A stretch of DNA of 35,332 bases from the IMG/VR virus record IMGVR_UViG_3300036982_000137, positions 1 through 35,332 of that record, one strand, 5' to 3'. The position numbers were made by a program, and so were the translations under genes. The stretch comes from a virus. Taxonomy: Duplodnaviria > Caudoviricetes. The notes under the pieces are model-generated. The model was not told where the DNA came from. It searched no databases and saw nothing but the letters and a program-made list of their open reading frames with translations. Numbering within the stretch: the first letter of the stretch is position 1; every line of letters begins with the position of its first letter. Below are positions 26,479 to 32,763 of this stretch, in pieces.

Positions 26479-26932
26479 GTAGCTCGTGCCTTAAATATTC
26501 TGCGATTAGTAGGGCTTCTGCCTTATTCCCGTCCTTCTTTAGCTTTAGCTTGGCTTCAGGCCAGTAATAACGTGCCATGTCCAGCGACTCGTTTTTATCG
26601 GCTGATAGGTGGAAATGCTTTTTCCAGCGTTGTGGAGTGACTAGGTGAACAGGGTATCGGGTTAACTCACAAACGGCTGAAATAACACCTACAGCCCTAC
26701 CGAATGCAAAAGTACTACTCACTCCTTGATTAGGCATACTATGCACCTGTTCCATACAGATTTCAGCCCCTACCTTTGGGTCAACAATGGATAGAATCCG
26801 ACTCTTGAAAACCAGTGCCAGAATGTGCTTGTCCTGATGTTCAATGTTAAATGCTTCTAGGTAATTCCCATCATGATCGACTGCACCTAATGCGCCTGAA
26901 ACAGAACCTGGGTCTACACCTATGAACACCAA
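26453..26932 (-). CDS. ruvC: RuvC-like Holliday junction resolvase
   Basis: IGVDPG, MEQVHSMP.QGVSSTFAFG, VTPQRWKK, DG.KAEALLIA. Confidence 0.88.
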   Translation of the reverse strand: MVFIGVDPGSVSGALGAVDHDGNYLEAFNIEHQDKHILALVFKSRILSIVDPKVGAEICMEQVHSMPNQGVSSTFAFGRAVGVISAVCELTRYPVHLVTPQRWKKHFHLSADKNESLDMARYYWPEAKLKLKKDGNKAEALLIAEYLRHELHGIQKAPK

Positions 26933-27447
26933 GATAATTCCCCTTTTTGTGCAGATGTAATTAACCTACTGCAATGTTCTTTTGAAATGTCAAATTGTTT
27001 AGCAATATCAACGACTTTTGTTTTTTCTTGTCTTAATTTAAGCATTGCTTGTATTTGTTCTCCCATAATTTTTGTTCTTGGATGTTTTTCTCTGGGTGCG
27101 TCTTTTATCCATCTGTTTGACCTGTTTTTGCTAACCCTGTCCATGATATTGTCCGTATTTGTTCCCAAAAACAAATGATTTGGATTGCAGCATGGCCTGT
27201 TATCGCATTTATGTAAAACGTGCATTCCATTAGGGATTTCACCTACATTGACCATCCAACTCAATCTATGAGCTTGTAATGCCTTACTGCCTCTGCCGCC
27301 TATTCTGGTTTGACCATAGCCATTTGGTGTAATGTAAGCACCCCATAACCAGCATTCATTGATTGCACCTTTAATGCAATGACGTTCAAATATTTCAGCG
27401 GGTGAGCTTATATATTGCCCATTTTTAGATTTTTGTTTGTAAATCAT
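26920..27447 (-). CDS. HNH (homing-type) endonuclease with C-terminal HTH
   Basis: CWLW...GYG...AHRLSW...VLHKCDNRPCCNPNHLFLGTNTDN; IAKQFDIS HTH. Start refined to MIYKQK. Confidence 0.88.
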   Translation of the reverse strand: MIYKQKSKNGQYISSPAEIFERHCIKGAINECWLWGAYITPNGYGQTRIGGRGSKALQAHRLSWMVNVGEIPNGMHVLHKCDNRPCCNPNHLFLGTNTDNIMDRVSKNRSNRWIKDAPREKHPRTKIMGEQIQAMLKLRQEKTKVVDIAKQFDISKEHCSRLITSAQKGELSWCS

Positions 27448-27451
27448 AGAC

Positions 27452-28300
27452 TTAGTCTCCGCAGAAACAAGGGATTGCTTCTTCGTTGGGGTCAATATTT
27501 CCAAACATATCTGTTTGTTGCAGTGCAAAATCATACATTTCCTTGTAACTTGGCCTATCTTTTCTGAATTTTGCTCCATCGCCATATGTTTTGTTTGACG
27601 AATTAGCGTGTGCCTCCATTTTCATCCACCATAATGCCCTTTCAGGCTTTTCAGCAATCAGTGACATGATCTGATGCGTTGGCTTTAGGAAACACAAATC
27701 ACAATTGCCGTGCATTGTGACTCCATTCATGTTTGGCAGACCCAAGTCAAAAGACTGGTTTCTCCAAAACTCTCCAACTGTCTGCTTGGTGACTCCTGCC
27801 GTTACTAGTGGTGTGCGGCTTCTGTCCATTTTGGCTGCTCTACGCATTTCATCAGCCCTTATACCAACCCAATCAGAGTTTTCGTCATGATGCCAACCGA
27901 TTGACTTCAAATAGTGGTTAATCACCCTGATCTTGAGCTTGGCAGTGCATATTCTGGCAACAGGATTAGGCAGGTATGGCGAACCGTTTTTGTCAATCAG
28001 TTCAAAAAAGGGCTCACCTTCACGAGAAGCCGTCTCAAAAGTCACCCTTCTCCACCTATTAGCAGGTACTTCCTCGTATTTGTACTCTAGCCAATGAATC
28101 TCAACACCCCAATTCTTCTCGCAATCATGGACAAACTGCAAAGTGGCTTCTTCTTCCTTGCCTGTATTGGCAAAACAAACAATTGCTTCAGACGGTAAAG
28201 TCATATTGTTGGCTTCCAATATACGATAAAGCATATAAGCGGAAGTCCTACCACCTGAAAAACTGATGCAAGTAGGTTCATTTATCAGAAACGGATTCAT
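27452..28300 (-). CDS. PAPS-reductase-like (PP-loop, Fe-S) protein
   Basis: ISFSGGRTS, FANTGKE, RICT.KLK, GIRADE..R, GNCDLCFLK, C-terminal CFC. Confidence 0.85.
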   Translation of the reverse strand: MNPFLINEPTCISFSGGRTSAYMLYRILEANNMTLPSEAIVCFANTGKEEEATLQFVHDCEKNWGVEIHWLEYKYEEVPANRWRRVTFETASREGEPFFELIDKNGSPYLPNPVARICTAKLKIRVINHYLKSIGWHHDENSDWVGIRADEMRRAAKMDRSRTPLVTAGVTKQTVGEFWRNQSFDLGLPNMNGVTMHGNCDLCFLKPTHQIMSLIAEKPERALWWMKMEAHANSSNKTYGDGAKFRKDRPSYKEMYDFALQQTDMFGNIDPNEEAIPCFCGD

Positions 28301-28463
28301 TGTTTGCTTTCATTTTGGCTATCAATTCCTGACTGATTCCCTGATAAATCCCTAGATAGTGATTCTCCAGTTCCTTTGCCCTGTGCCACGCATAGGCTTT
28401 CCAGCCACTCGTTGATGCCATCGTTATCAAATGGTCGAGCGTGGATTGGTAGTGGGCTTGCAA
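28278..28463 (-). CDS. Hypothetical protein overlapping the preceding gene
   Basis: GGAG-N3-TTG possible start; LDHLITMA...GWKAYAWHRAKELE looks protein-like. Confidence 0.45.
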   Translation of the reverse strand: MQAHYQSTLDHLITMASTSGWKAYAWHRAKELENHYLGIYQGISQELIAKMKANNESVSDK

Positions 28464-28566
28464 TGTCTCCGGTCTGCCAAAGGGCTTCTGTGACTTTGAT
28501 GAGGGATTGTCTGACGATTCCATCTTTTTGTTTGTCAAGTAGTTCGTTTGCTTGTTCTCTTGTCAT
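28297..28566 (-). CDS. Hypothetical protein
   Basis: MTREQANELLD...ALWQTGD; ATGA-coupled on both sides. Confidence 0.6.
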   Translation of the reverse strand: MTREQANELLDKQKDGIVRQSLIKVTEALWQTGDIASPLPIHARPFDNDGINEWLESLCVAQGKGTGESLSRDLSGNQSGIDSQNESKQ

Positions 28567-28931
28567 TGTCTACCCCTAAGTGCTGCTAATCTTTCCCTGA
28601 TATGGTCAGGCATAGAAACGGCTTTTTGGCGGTCTTGCTCCAGTTTGGCTAAGGCAGGGTCAATTTGTGGTTTTGACTGCATCTCAGGCACTTCTGCGCC
28701 GTCCCATCGCTGTTGGTTCAAGTAAACCAAAGGGGCAGGAATAAAAGCACCGTTTGCTTTCAGCCATTGCTCTGTTGTTTTCATCCATGCAAGGTGTTTA
28801 AGGATTTGATCTGCTTGAGTGTCGCAATAAGACTTTACCCACACTTGTTTACATTTAGCCTTTGCCCCTTTTCTTGGAGTGTTAGGCCACATTTTCCAGA
28901 AGTCATCAAACATCGGTTTACTTTCAGACAT
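28563..28931 (-). CDS. Replication initiator C-terminal (replisome-organiser-like) domain protein
   Basis: FDDFWKMWP..RKGAK...W...FIPAPLVYLNQQRWD; GGAG RBS before MSESKP; no N-terminal wHTH. Confidence 0.75.
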   Translation of the reverse strand: MSESKPMFDDFWKMWPNTPRKGAKAKCKQVWVKSYCDTQADQILKHLAWMKTTEQWLKANGAFIPAPLVYLNQQRWDGAEVPEMQSKPQIDPALAKLEQDRQKAVSMPDHIRERLAALRGRQ

Positions 28932-28939
28932 AGGTTCTC

Positions 28940-29374
28940 CAAGGGTGGATAGACTCGTTTCTATCCTACCTGCTCCAGACTTATCTGTATTCATTATCAA
29001 CTCCTATCAACTAGAAAAAACAAAGAAGCCCCAAGTGCGCTTGACGGATTTGTTCGCTTATACATTTGGCCTTGTTTACCACCGTGTACCAAATGCTTTA
29101 CCAGTCGCCAAATCAACGCTGGTCGCCTTTTGCTCTGGGGTGTATCAGAGTGCGGTGTTTTCTTCCAAGCAGTCCATGCAGACTCACTACTATCGTGTGG
29201 AGTACGGTCTGCAAAAGCAAAAACCCCGCAAAATGCTCTGTGGTCTTGGCTCTTGGTTTGAGCAGCAGCTAAACGATTGAATCGACAAAAGTCACGCTTG
29301 CCACCTTGCAAGACCACACAGTACTCTGCGGGGTTCTCTGTCGATTCATCGTCTAGATACCACTCCAGACGATG
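28940..29374 (-). ncRNA. Candidate structured leader RNA with antisense/attenuator module
   Basis: 11-bp 5' hairpin, 29-bp stem plus U tract, internal 29-nt complementarity, and at least five further hairpins. See findings. Confidence 0.6.
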
Positions 29375-29377
29375 CAA

Positions 29378-29405
29378 ATTATACATAGAAAACAATTTGC
29401 GTCAA
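29378..29405 (-). promoter_or_regulatory. Strong sigma70 promoter
   Basis: TTGACG-N16-TATAAT on the minus strand. Confidence 0.75.
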
Positions 29406-29406
29406 A

Positions 29407-29583
29407 CTATTTTTTTTTATCAAAATCAGATTCTCTTTTCTTGCGCTGCTCAATCGAAGCGGCAAGCAGTTTCCGCAACCATATTGCCCCTCCCATATTG
29501 TGAAATTCCTCTCTCAGGGACTTACTTACCCTGACTGCAATCTGCATATTGCTGCCCGTTAGTTCTGATGGCGGTCTTGGCAT
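29407..29583 (-). CDS. 58-aa ribbon-helix-helix (Arc-like) regulator
   Basis: MPRPPSELTGSNMQIAVRVSKSLREEFHNMGGAIWLRKLLAAS...; strand IAVRV plus GGAxWLR motif. Not in the ORF track. Confidence 0.7.
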   Translation of the reverse strand: MPRPPSELTGSNMQIAVRVSKSLREEFHNMGGAIWLRKLLAASIEQRKKRESDFDKKK

Positions 29584-29619
29584 TTTGTTGTCTGTTGGTT
29601 AAAAGTAACGAATTGTTGC

Positions 29620-29690
29620 TTGTGTCTAACATTACACAATAAGGGAATATCCTAGTGTCAGACATAACATATTATGTCATACACTACACA
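29620..29690. promoter_or_regulatory. Divergent control region with TGTC-N-GACA-like operators
   Basis: TGTCTAACA (29623), TGTCAGACA (29656), TGTCATACA (29675); a further TGTCTGACA at 30147. Confidence 0.55.
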
Positions 29691-29713
29691 CTCAACAACT
29701 TGAAAGGTGTCCC

Positions 29714-29884
29714 ATGACGTTACGTTACAAACCATTATTTGCAGATGAAAGCCGTGAAAAATGCCCGTTACTGGGCTGCGGCGGTACATTATTTGAAGAT
29801 GAGGGGTCTTACCACTGTCGTGGTTGCAACTCGTTCTTTTATCTTGAAGAAAAGACTCTTGAGGAAAGCTATGACGATGAGTGA
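29714..29884 (+). CDS. 56-aa zinc-ribbon protein
   Basis: AAGGTG RBS; CPLLGCGG...YHCRGC; acidic tail. Not in the ORF track. Confidence 0.65.
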   Translation: MTLRYKPLFADESREKCPLLGCGGTLFEDEGSYHCRGCNSFFYLEEKTLEESYDDE

Positions 29885-30119
29885 ATTCAACAGACCAACA
29901 TCAAATGACGAAACATATAACCATGTTGAGAGCATGAACAGGGTTAAGAAATCGTTTGATGAAGAAATGCAAAGGCGAGCCAAGACTCAACAGCAGTTCT
30001 ATGACCAGCTAAGAAACGGAGTAATTGATGAAGTCACTGTTGAAATTCAGAAGATGACAGGTTTTGGCAAAGATACGCTAGACAGTTTGTGTGTTTACGT
30101 TCAAGGAATGAAGAATTAG
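29877..30119 (+). CDS. Hypothetical protein
   Basis: GAGG RBS; LRNGVIDEV...GFGKDTLDSL motif. Start refined from 29739. Confidence 0.65.
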   Translation: MSEFNRPTSNDETYNHVESMNRVKKSFDEEMQRRAKTQQQFYDQLRNGVIDEVTVEIQKMTGFGKDTLDSLCVYVQGMKN

Positions 30120-30190
30120 GGAAATTCCCTATATCAATCATGATAGTGTCTGACAGAATACACGCATTGACAGGTTTTTAACAGGAGTAA

Positions 30191-30532
30191 ATGATGATTG
30201 ATTTGAAACGAGATACTTGGATGGCACTGCAAGACATGAGTTCAGAAGATGTTGCAGATGCGATATGCGATAGTCAGGCTATCGTAGAAGCAATACAGTC
30301 AAACGCTTGGTCTGATGTTGCCGACATGGTGAGAGCCAGAGTCGAATTAAAAGCACAGCGTCTTGCACAAGTCGCTAACGACTTACCTCTGACCCCTTGG
30401 GTAGACGAGGAAGAAGAATTAAACCTATGGCGTTGTTATCGTATTGAACGCCAGCAGGAAGCCTTGGAAGACTGCAAGGTAAAAGTTAAAATCAACCCCT
30501 ACTCCAAAGGCGAGGTCACTAATGAAGACTAA
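30191..30532 (+). CDS. Hypothetical acidic protein
   Basis: AGGAG RBS; D/E-rich helical sequence. Confidence 0.75.
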   Translation: MMIDLKRDTWMALQDMSSEDVADAICDSQAIVEAIQSNAWSDVADMVRARVELKAQRLAQVANDLPLTPWVDEEEELNLWRCYRIERQQEALEDCKVKVKINPYSKGEVTNED

Positions 30533-30911: not shown

Positions 30912-31475
30912 ATGATGAATCAAGAACAGGTGTTAAGTCTTCTCAGTAAGAATGTCAATGAACATATTGAGAAGAAAGGTAAATTGAGTTATTTGTCTTG
31001 GGCGTGGGCGTGGGCTGAAGCACTGAAAGCAGACCCTGATGCCTCTTACAAGACTGAAATGTTTGATGGCAAATGTTTTATGGAAATAAACGGCACTGCA
31101 ATGGTGTTCGTAACAGTCACAATGTTTGGCAAACCAATGACTTGCCAACTTCCAGTAATGAACCATCTTAATAAAGCAATTGAAAATCCTGATGCTTTTG
31201 CAGTCAACACTTCCATCATGCGCTGCATGACTAAGGCGTTGGCTTTACATGGACTCTCGTTGTACATCTATGCGGGTGAAGACTTGCCAGAGGGTGCGGG
31301 TTCAGACATTGATGTAAACGTGATGATCGACCACTTGGCAGCAATTGATACGGCATCCACACTTGAGGAATTAAAAGATGTATATGGCTATGCTTACGCT
31401 GCTTGCGATGGTGATAAAGGCTGGCTAAAGAAAGTAATTGATGCAAAAGAAAAGCGTAAAGGAGCATTGAAATGA
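30912..31475 (+). CDS. Sak3-like (DUF1071) single-strand annealing protein
   Basis: LSYLSWAWAW, QLPVMNH.NKAI, NTSIMRCMTKALALHGL.LYIYAGEDLP. Confidence 0.88.
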   Translation: MMNQEQVLSLLSKNVNEHIEKKGKLSYLSWAWAWAEALKADPDASYKTEMFDGKCFMEINGTAMVFVTVTMFGKPMTCQLPVMNHLNKAIENPDAFAVNTSIMRCMTKALALHGLSLYIYAGEDLPEGAGSDIDVNVMIDHLAAIDTASTLEELKDVYGYAYAACDGDKGWLKKVIDAKEKRKGALK

Positions 31476-31756
31476 AAGTCAAAACAATCGCACACATTCA
31501 CTATCTTAAATACGATTTTGAAGTAAATGGCAGGTATGAAGTTCTTAGTTTTAAGGCTAATGACGACTCTTTTCGTACCTATGTAGGCGAACAAGAAATT
31601 GAAATTGACGTACCTGATGACTATGACCCACGGTCGCAGAAAATTGCTGCTTTAGAAAAACAAAAGCAAAATGTCATGGCTGAGTATCAAAAGACCGTGA
31701 CTGAAATCAACGAGCGCATCAACAAACTGCAAGCATTGGAGTACACAAATGAGTGA
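31472..31756 (+). CDS. Hypothetical protein with C-terminal coiled coil
   Basis: DVPDDYDPR..KIAALE...INKLQALEY; coupled overlaps. Confidence 0.7.
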   Translation: MKVKTIAHIHYLKYDFEVNGRYEVLSFKANDDSFRTYVGEQEIEIDVPDDYDPRSQKIAALEKQKQNVMAEYQKTVTEINERINKLQALEYTNE

Positions 31757-32369
31757 TATTGAACAAGGTTCACCTGAATGGTTTGCACAGCGTTGTGGCA
31801 AAGCTACAGCATCTCGTATCTCAGACATTGTTGCCAAAACTAAGTCAGGCTACAGCACAAGCAGAGCAAACTACATGGCACAACTGGTAGTCGAGCGCAT
31901 GACTAACCAAGTGGCAGAGTCCTACAGCAATGCAGCTATGGAATGGGGTGTTGAGAACGAGGAATTTGCTCGTGCTGCATACGAGGCTAAAACAGGCAAT
32001 ATGGTCGATCAGGTAGGTGCTATTGACCATCCAAGGATTGCCATGTCTGCTGCCTCTCCTGATGGCCTTGTGGGTGATGATGGATGCTTGGAGATCAAGT
32101 GTCCGAACACGGCCACACACATTGAAACCCTTTTGGGTGACGAGCCAGCAAAGAAGTATTACGACCAAATGCAGTGGCAAATGGTTTGTGCAAACAGAAG
32201 TTGGTGCGACTTTGTGAGTTTCGACCCACGAATGCCATCGCACTTACAACTGTTTGTCAAAAGGATCGAGCGCAATGATATTTATATTGCAGAACTCGAA
32301 AGTGAGGTTATCTGCTTCTTGGCTGAAGTGGACGACAAGGTTAAAAAACTCAATGAAATCAAGGTGTAA
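31749..32369 (+). CDS. YqaJ / lambda-type exonuclease
   Basis: QGSPEWF..R.G..TAS, ASPDGL, LEIKCP, YYDQMQWQM, CDFVSFDPR. Confidence 0.93.
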   Translation: MSDIEQGSPEWFAQRCGKATASRISDIVAKTKSGYSTSRANYMAQLVVERMTNQVAESYSNAAMEWGVENEEFARAAYEAKTGNMVDQVGAIDHPRIAMSAASPDGLVGDDGCLEIKCPNTATHIETLLGDEPAKKYYDQMQWQMVCANRSWCDFVSFDPRMPSHLQLFVKRIERNDIYIAELESEVICFLAEVDDKVKKLNEIKV

Positions 32370-32371
32370 AT

Positions 32372-32518
32372 ATGGAACAAAATGTCAAAACAAATGAACT
32401 CAGTCATACAGATTGTCTGCAAGCCTTAAAAAAAGAAGTCAAAGGCGATATGAGGCAATCAGTCTTGTTGCAACTTATAGAAAAATTAGAACAACAAATT
32501 GAAGAAGGAGACTTCTAA
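32372..32518 (+). CDS. 48-aa hypothetical protein
   Basis: MEQNVKTNELSHTDCLQALKK...; AAGGTG RBS; TAATG overlap with the next gene. Not in the ORF track. Confidence 0.55.
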   Translation: MEQNVKTNELSHTDCLQALKKEVKGDMRQSVLLQLIEKLEQQIEEGDF

Positions 32519-32763
32519 TGGAACAACAGCGTGATAACTCAGGTGTATTGTTTAAGAACGACAAGAAAGAAAAATTTAATGATCCGGACTATAAAGGCAA
32601 CATTCGTGTGGATGGACAGGACTTCTGGCTATCAGCATGGATTAAAGAGGGAAAGAACAACAAGTTCATGGGATTAGCAGTCAACCCTAAAAAACCTAAA
32701 GAGGAACAAACAAGCCAGCCTAAAGGCAAGATTGAGGACATGGACGATCAAATCCCTTTTTGA
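32518..32763 (+). CDS. Single-stranded DNA-binding protein (small phage type)
   Basis: NSGVLFKN...PDYKG...WLSAW and acidic tail DDQIPF; follows annealase and exonuclease. Confidence 0.8.
   Translation: MEQQRDNSGVLFKNDKKEKFNDPDYKGNIRVDGQDFWLSAWIKEGKNNKFMGLAVNPKKPKEEQTSQPKGKIEDMDDQIPF

Follow-up and report, generated by a model that had tools for sequence, protein, structure and literature searches.

The window analysed here, a stretch of 35,332 bp taken as a whole, is the genome of a tailed phage from freshwater with a CheckV completeness of 100%. As can be seen from PHROGs matches, its minus strand carries terminase, portal, capsid and lysis genes, while a divergent early operon on the plus strand (30912..32763) encodes a Sak-like annealing protein, an exonuclease and an SSB. 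A 122-amino-acid protein matching initiator profiles, referred to here as the mini-initiator, is encoded on the minus strand at 28563..28931. On the same strand, a 58-aa ORF without a family match (29407..29583) takes the position occupied in relatives by a Cro-like regulator, and annotated cro genes sit at the corresponding place in loci L081 and L082. Downstream of the initiator, here and in many relatives, are two overlapping minus-strand ORFs of 89 and 86 aa (28278..28566), for which PHROGs, Pfam and NCBIfam gave no significant family match; they lie in different frames, are both conserved directly after the initiator and are candidates for a loader or accessory role. Further along are a PAPS-reductase-like gene (27452-28300) and an HNH endonuclease gene (26920-27585), in a slot that holds methyltransferases or other cargo in relatives. 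A near-palindromic 15-mer, possibly an operator, occurs twice in the divergent control region (29653-29667 and 30144-30158).

Neither a helicase nor a primase nor a polymerase was found in the window genome when 56 ORFs were compared with PHROGs, 18 with Pfam and 22 with NCBIfam. DnaB_C was not found in the window's complete record, and no P-like loader was identified in this phage. The original prediction had described a genome lacking helicase, primase and polymerase genes, and these searches agree with it.

An initiator reduced to its C-terminal domain

The mini-initiator aligns only to the C-terminal part of initiator profiles (residues 177-269 of 288 in phrog_9474 and 174-264 of 383 in phrog_270) and comprises an initiator C-terminal domain (approximately 28692-28910) and a two-helix basic tail (28572-28667). 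Since at most 47 open codons stand ahead of residue 8 in all 80 of the closest loci (the best 80 of 509, one of which ends at a contig edge), the short form of the initiator is stable. Together, the profile matches and the 80 loci bear out the earlier claim of an initiator cut down to its C-terminal domain. The true start of the protein may be Met7 (28913), a conserved start in many relatives. Upstream, at 28932-28994, an ATG with a ribosome site is in frame through the 3′ hairpin described below in many relatives, giving a 21-aa extension that is not universal.

Longer homologues (at least 252 aa) carry DUF1376, HTH_36 or HNH heads. The closest Pfam-bearing Atlas cluster to the mini-initiator is PF09524 (Phg_2220_C), at 0.92, and stand-alone versions of the C-terminal domain are common and already form Atlas clusters. 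The predicted structure consists of a helical core and two tail helices (pLDDT 80). Foldseek gave no match to this model at E 0.001, and a PDB sequence search with the protein gave nothing clear; in a fold comparison aimed at a likeness to the solved C-terminal domains of DnaD, DnaT or lambda O, the top Z was 4.9, and SPP1 G39P appeared at Z 4.0 (rmsd 2.8, 58 aligned) amid unrelated rows.

The basic tail is found on 157 distinct mini-initiators and is lacking in 21, which are those cut by a locus edge. Twelve full-length ORFs from the loci lack it, as do 120 long homologues of the domain, and it is common to the C-termini of many full-length phage initiators with other domain types and of P0273 (207 aa). 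No Pfam family matched the tail. That it is an RNA-specific module is weakened by the many proteins of 200–390 aa that end in it among 207 matches. Since other full-length initiators also end in this tail, we read it as general, a putative helicase-recruiting module. A second, more distant type of mini-initiator, 120 aa long and tail-less, was seen in L529 (688-1047), L496, L502 and L562, also beside a cassette of the A″ type described below.

A covarying RNA fold upstream of the initiator

The region upstream of the mini-initiator in the window folds better than shuffled sequences (z −5.3). We aligned 158 copies of this region, reduced to 49 representatives at 92% identity and, after one badly cut row had been dropped, to 48 rows; this module (module A; 28942..29207, minus strand) is ∼270 nt long. 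Its 5′ domain (29158..29207, minus strand), recognised by covariation and by side-by-side comparison with A″ loci, is common to A″. Hairpin 29171-29184 (helix 1) has a conserved six-base loop, 99.5% of its cells are paired and three of its four pairs change on both sides. The original prediction listed five hairpins upstream of the gene. Four of these lie where they were placed and are kept in relatives, whereas the first (29177-29213) was rejected: relatives do not conserve its 5′ arm, and the bases of its 3′ arm are part of helix 1.

The core of module A (29031..29154, minus strand), defined by covariation over the 48 rows, contains stems P2 (29124-29154), P3 (29100-29123), P4 (29062-29096) and P5 (29038-29046) and a word at 29031-29038 that is invariant in the alignment. 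All eight pairs of P4 change on both sides. The P3 loop (29109-29114) can pair with 29047-29052 in a pseudoknot of six pairs, of which 96.9% of cells are paired and four change on both sides. P2 reaches just 67.9% because it aligns poorly. For the whole structure, 92.8% of cells are paired, compared with 77.3% in shuffled and 28–38% in slid controls, and both bases vary in 25 of the 41 pairs, a count inflated by kinship among the sequences. Given the values for the slid controls and the variety of pair types, chance is an unlikely source of this fold, and the covariation of stems on which the earlier proposal depended is present. With the P2 inner helix left out, G-U combinations (164) far exceed A-C combinations (11), indicating that the sense strand is the one that folds. 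Many unpaired bases are invariant, and GNRA and UUCG loops occur in variable stems of relatives.

The 3′ end of the module (28942..28978, minus strand) is made up of a purine-rich arm and a hairpin (28942-28971). Every one of the 48 rows keeps the P4 loop (29079-29083) complementary to the arm word 28944-28948; loop and word change together, giving three versions with 42, 5 and 1 rows. In all 48 rows the same word also forms the local 3′ hairpin. Since one word pairs with either the P4 loop or the local hairpin, the 3′ end is a two-state element whose states would exclude one another. From these complementarities, module A is predicted to contain two pseudoknots.

At 9–11 nt past the 3′ hairpin is a boundary word followed by an A-rich stretch (28929..28935, minus strand), which in the window includes the ATG of the ORF. 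It is retained in 68 distinct tails; in 30 of them, no ORF of at least 45 aa begins there. Among 126 distinct copies with the word, 90 open a long ORF (5 others reach an edge) and 31 open only short ORFs, many of these without a ribosome site. No terminator follows module A.

A non-coding cassette with a promoter-like site

Ahead of module A lies a second folded region, domain B (29213..29374, minus strand), which together with A forms the cassette. The loop word (29359-29362) of its 5′ hairpin (29347-29374) and a bulge (29254-29257) in a long hairpin (29222-29335) are complementary, and this long hairpin terminates in a U run, as a terminator would. Multiple interchangeable B types exist, across which, judged by eye, the loop and bulge words co-change. 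On this complementarity, B is a predicted kissing-hairpin domain. A sigma-70-type promoter-like site (29378..29405, minus strand; 11 of 12 consensus positions, 16-nt spacer) would drive the cassette. The motif scan found one such site where shuffled sequences gave 2.2, so that it is not significant by itself; a promoter-like site is also seen by eye ahead of the cassette in relatives. A simple scan of 28400-29900 gave no promoter-like site on the plus strand that could yield an antisense RNA. The original prediction had missed the promoter-like site, domain B, both pseudoknots and the fact that the block as a whole is mobile (see below).

The 28997-29395 frame (132 aa), which directly or through a frameshift might have supplied a DNA-binding head, stays open in just 17 of the 48 relatives, and cassette spacings in relatives are not multiples of three. 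These observations, together with intervening genes and downstream positions of the cassette, rule out a coding or frameshifted head domain upstream. The iterons whose absence had been claimed earlier are indeed lacking, with no clustered array in 28200-30300. Contigs over the module were present in eight of eight RNA libraries examined, and two spanned the B–A junction; since the libraries were chosen for sharing the module and may contain DNA, their support for transcription is weak, and being contigs only they are silent on strand, ends and level.

Linkage of the module to mini-initiators

Linkage was assessed from the protein and from the DNA. The protein-picked set comprised 131 distinct genes. 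A module lay within 2.2 kb of 74 of the 79 mini-initiators with a 2-kb flank, compared with none of eight full-length initiators. The 74 linked modules were of type A (59), A′ (12) or A″ (3); three more mini-initiators have A at a distance of 4.2–4.5 kb on the other strand, and two have none. A pattern scan blind to the protein gave 119 loci, 80 of them with flanks, and in 69 of these 80 a short initiator lay within 1.6 kb on the same strand, in four cases upstream of the module. The remaining 11 consist of one chance match, four loci that end at a contig edge and six real copies without a short initiator. A third viral scan returned nearly the same loci as the first. No module lies within 3 kb of the initiator in L034, and in L475 most of module A is missing ahead of the initiator, between two similar short words, either by deletion or as an assembly artefact. 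A DnaB-like helicase was found in none of 24 mini-initiator records and Pol A in none of 28 records. A pattern scan of GTDB gave four real matches among 100 of 120 loci tested, the remainder being mostly chance; the four sit on short contigs binned with unrelated taxa, so the scan gives no host.

The expectation that homologues lacking the wHTH carry a covarying RNA and that full-length initiators do not is thus matched by the 74 of 79 and 0 of 8 counts, although the linkage largely reflects one phage lineage. Tight linkage of a structured, non-coding, sense-strand RNA to wHTH-less initiators is supported, but the stronger claim, that the RNA replaces the wHTH, is weakened by its presence in genomes with full-length initiators, in phages with primase-helicases and in two phages in which no initiator was detected. 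The module looks like a self-standing unit that allowed loss of the head, rather than a partner built for this protein.

Mobility of the cassette and sister modules

The cassette moves as a block and is found upstream, downstream or on the opposite strand of the initiator gene, or is swapped for sister modules. It is located after the initiator in L081, L083, L141, L144 and L158. In a clade of five loci (L421-L431) it stands behind cro, with only a 35-aa ORF and convergently oriented lysis genes downstream and the initiator on the other strand, and in L161 it lies beside a tRNA, other copies lying beside terL. The genes downstream of the cassette vary freely. When 48 long records were picked for a module, 26 had A, 18 A″ and 4 A′, and none had both A and A″; no record had two cassettes, barring a terminal repeat.

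A″, which has B and the 5′ domain in common with the window's module, is represented by ∼150 stretches in IMG/VR (L490-L608, e.g. L496, L514, L547, L562 and L585). Among 79 newly fetched flanked A″ loci, 13 were near this initiator domain, and neighbours included a primase-helicase (16 loci), a TOPRIM primase (11) and terL (7). Two phages of 34–35 kb carry A″: G079:C1 (L613, L614; 99% complete), whose cassette leads into an oppositely oriented gene, and G076:C1 (L615, L616; 95% complete). Neither PHROGs nor 234 initiator, helicase and primase queries, which did find the G078 initiator as a positive control, detected an initiator, helicase or primase in either, nor was Pol A detected; both have recombination genes, an SSB, a resolvase and the A″ cassette only. 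A profile search for initiators in 18 A″ records (1 of 18) was set aside, having missed the G078 initiator. Genomes with a full-length initiator also carry the cassette: G002, G007 and G008 have in addition their own helicase, with the cassette ∼10 kb away, and G078, G004, G005 and L446 are further carriers with a full-length initiator.

The A′ module has a different fold behind the same B domains (L052:2750-2969, L061, L404, L440 and 13 more distinct copies), with two loops complementary to its own 3′ end and then an A run. In L467 a fourth structured module follows the window's B type, located between ∼560 and 200 nt upstream of the initiator. Eight A″ copies (L468, L491, L493, L500, L532, L539, L554 and L598) have a long hairpin inserted between 5′ domain and core, with a similar closing stem. 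Searches for plasmids carrying A or A″ found none, and those for phages with the module found two uncultured spring phages and no cultured one.

The literature searches turned up no description of this RNA. Rfam gave no match for the window at the gathering threshold or at E up to 5, and a tRNA only over 15 loci representing all module types; a group II intron, a ribozyme, a C4 RNA and other Rfam classes were rejected on these grounds. The motif words are absent from the searched text and supplements of Fremin 2023 (PMC10690425); since these did not cover two large structure and alignment files, module fragments may be among its 8,495 IMG/VR candidates. We conclude that the feature is genuine and conserved and that Rfam does not list it.

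A direct repeat in A″ and the likeness to ColE1

In A″, an internal loop word equals the word that directly follows a G-rich 3′ hairpin, and the two co-change in 16 word classes. The loop matches its own 3′ word over 6.9 nt compared with 3.3 nt for crossed combinations, and one case in 76 showed a complement of the loop word at another site within the element. Two copies of one word that covary as a direct repeat cannot pair with each other inside the RNA, so the partner would be the template strand or an antisense RNA. In ColE1, the persistent hybrid of RNA II reportedly starts by loop-to-template pairing (Masukata and Tomizawa, 1990), so that an A″ loop copying its own 3′ word resembles what is said of ColE1. 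In module A, unlike A″, the corresponding loop carries the complement of sense-strand sequence, and a loop copy in P2 shows no reliable covariation.

A boundary-word profile ranked the word before the A run of ColE1 first or second of ∼13,250 sites in 6 of 12 settings, where it scored above all eight annotated starts, and 10th to 25th in the other six; this comparison is post hoc, made after the likeness had been noticed. The boundary word is absent from A′ and A″. Kinship with ColE1 RNA II by common words was rejected, 7–9-mers being within the null, and model R1 gave no match on ColE1 (NC_001371).

DISCUSSION

The cassette described here is conserved in structure and specific to the sense strand, occurs in single copy, is independent of the genes downstream and is tightly linked to mini-initiators, and no helicase, primase or polymerase gene was found in the window. 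These observations support an RNA-dependent origin, already put forward in the original prediction and, we infer, the best reading. More specifically, the cassette could be an R-loop primer origin at which the mini-initiator likely loads the host helicase, a proposal to which we give about an even chance. It is further favoured by the covarying direct repeat of A″, which fits pairing with the template strand, by the two A″ phages in which no replication gene was detected, by the lack of DnaB-like helicases and Pol A in the records searched and by the boundary-word ranks. Telling against it are a covarying repeat seen in A″ but not in module A, the lack of sequence kinship with ColE1 RNA II, the absence of plasmid carriers, a linkage that largely reflects one lineage and the exceptional loci L034 and L475. 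Transcription by the host RNA polymerase would run through B, past its U run, and into A, although that U run resembles a terminator. A switch at the 3′ hairpin would then make the purine-rich arm available for hybridisation with the template; in module A, pairing of the P4 loop with 28944-28948 would release this arm. The folded RNA would keep the strands apart by forming an R-loop close to its own 3′ end, RNase H would cut and Pol I would extend the primer near 28930, with the boundary word as a candidate RNA-to-DNA switch zone. On the displaced strand, the mini-initiator would load host DnaB via its tail. Specificity supplied by RNA would have made iterons and a wHTH dispensable. Because some genomes with a full-length initiator, several of them with a helicase as well, carry the cassette too, often before late genes or after terL, the proposal must assume a second origin in these phages.

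The closest known parallel is ColE1, in which the promoter lies 550 nt ahead of the start and the primer is made and extended by RNase H and Pol I (PMC5043065, PMC11012335). Like RNA II, the cassette would give a non-coding folded transcript from its own promoter, here a promoter-like site ∼440 nt upstream of the proposed start. Both would have alternative conformations, no need for an iteron-binding protein, a purine-rich sense strand near the end and a similar boundary word. However, ColE1 is a plasmid and the cassette belongs to tailed phages, with no match by sequence or model; unlike ColE1, the cassette has an extra kissing-hairpin domain and an accessory mini-initiator, and the simple scan gave it no antisense promoter on the plus strand. 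A phage precedent is provided by T4 oriF and oriG, origins of ∼100 bp with a MotA promoter and an A+T-rich unwinding element served by T4's own replisome, where the transcript from the promoter stays hybridised in a persistent R-loop from which synthesis is primed and at which the helicase can load (PMC3016281). T4 and the cassette would thus share a phage origin built from promoter and R-loop, but T4 needs no specific fold, whereas a 270-nt covarying fold and host enzymes are proposed here. The most plausible mode of action for the cassette is that of an R-loop origin of the ColE1 or T4 kind, yet it is not a member of the ColE1 family. Lambdoid Phg_2220_C-like initiators (phrog_270, phrog_9474) have the same C-terminal domain at the same place after cro; unlike O- or G38P-type proteins, the window protein has no N-terminal DNA-binding head, and no iterons, P-like loader or helicase were identified with it.

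An alternative that we consider unlikely is a free-standing structured RNA that acts in trans as a scaffold, a decoy or an agent of host takeover, with replication proceeding by recombination through Sak, exonuclease and SSB and the mini-initiator loading helicase at D-loops. The promoter-like site, the single copy per genome and the free position, including copies by a tRNA (L161) and by terL, would suit such an RNA, as would its occurrence in genomes with complete replication modules and the annealing proteins and exonucleases in all carrier genomes examined; the many invariant unpaired bases fit a binding or catalytic RNA. Against this, module A is followed by no terminator, and the boundary word is held at a fixed spacing outside the fold. 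The covarying direct repeat of A″ has no RNA partner and points to its own DNA, and an RNA acting in trans need not remain within 2 kb of mini-initiators.

Structured RNAs that follow early promoters or precede rep genes offer a different comparison, and the ColIb-P9 repZ pseudoknot and the P1 C4 and P4 CI RNAs are of this sort. The cassette shares with them and with HK022 put this location and a loop-to-bulge or loop-to-3′ pairing, but is much larger, single-copy, kept without a downstream operon and without an Rfam match. It might still be a cis-acting leader, B being an attenuator and A either a put-like element for transcriptional read-through or a repZ-like translation switch, which we regard as about as unlikely as the free-standing RNA. 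In its favour, most copies occupy the first position of a sense-strand operon, either following cro or preceding late genes. Pairing of the P4 loop would compete with formation of the hairpin beside the ribosome site, and the boundary word opens a long ORF in most of the distinct copies. The placement also recalls HK022 putR, located ∼270 nt after PR (PMC9378689). However, the cassette is retained where nothing is left to regulate (the L421-L431 clade and G079), the genes downstream differ freely, and the 31 copies that open just short ORFs often have no ribosome site. HK022 moreover has two put sites of ∼70 nt, one after each early promoter, in contrast to one cassette of 270 nt per record in 44 A or A″ records (PMC9378689 for the two sites). 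Least likely, and very improbable in our view, is a fold in single-stranded DNA that signals the start of a primase or primosome on the displaced strand during rolling-circle replication: the G-T bias on one strand only, an SSB without a detected primase and a short triplet in the boundary word beside the hairpin are compatible with it, but a promoter-like site precedes every cassette examined, and two long-range pseudoknots, GNRA and UUCG loops in variable stems and the contigs in all eight RNA libraries (chosen for sharing the module, DNA possible) speak for RNA.

Returning to the R-loop origin, a wider proposal can be made, tentatively and at somewhat short of an even chance: that these uncatalogued, interchangeable, pseudoknotted RNAs are the origins of many small freshwater tailed phages and find and open their DNA by loop-to-strand pairing, and that lineages were thereby able to shrink the initiator to a helicase-loading stub or to drop replication genes. 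Even without a role as an origin, the modules make up a new family of large pseudoknotted phage RNAs not in Rfam. If the proposal is true, the RNA-primer principle of ColE1 would extend to tailed phages, and hundreds of natural covarying variants would become available for the question of how a transcript forms a persistent hybrid, a matter that PMC5043065 calls speculative even for ColE1. Such compact, protein-light origins would be candidate replicons, and they would show how small phages without an initiator, helicase or polymerase of their own begin replication.
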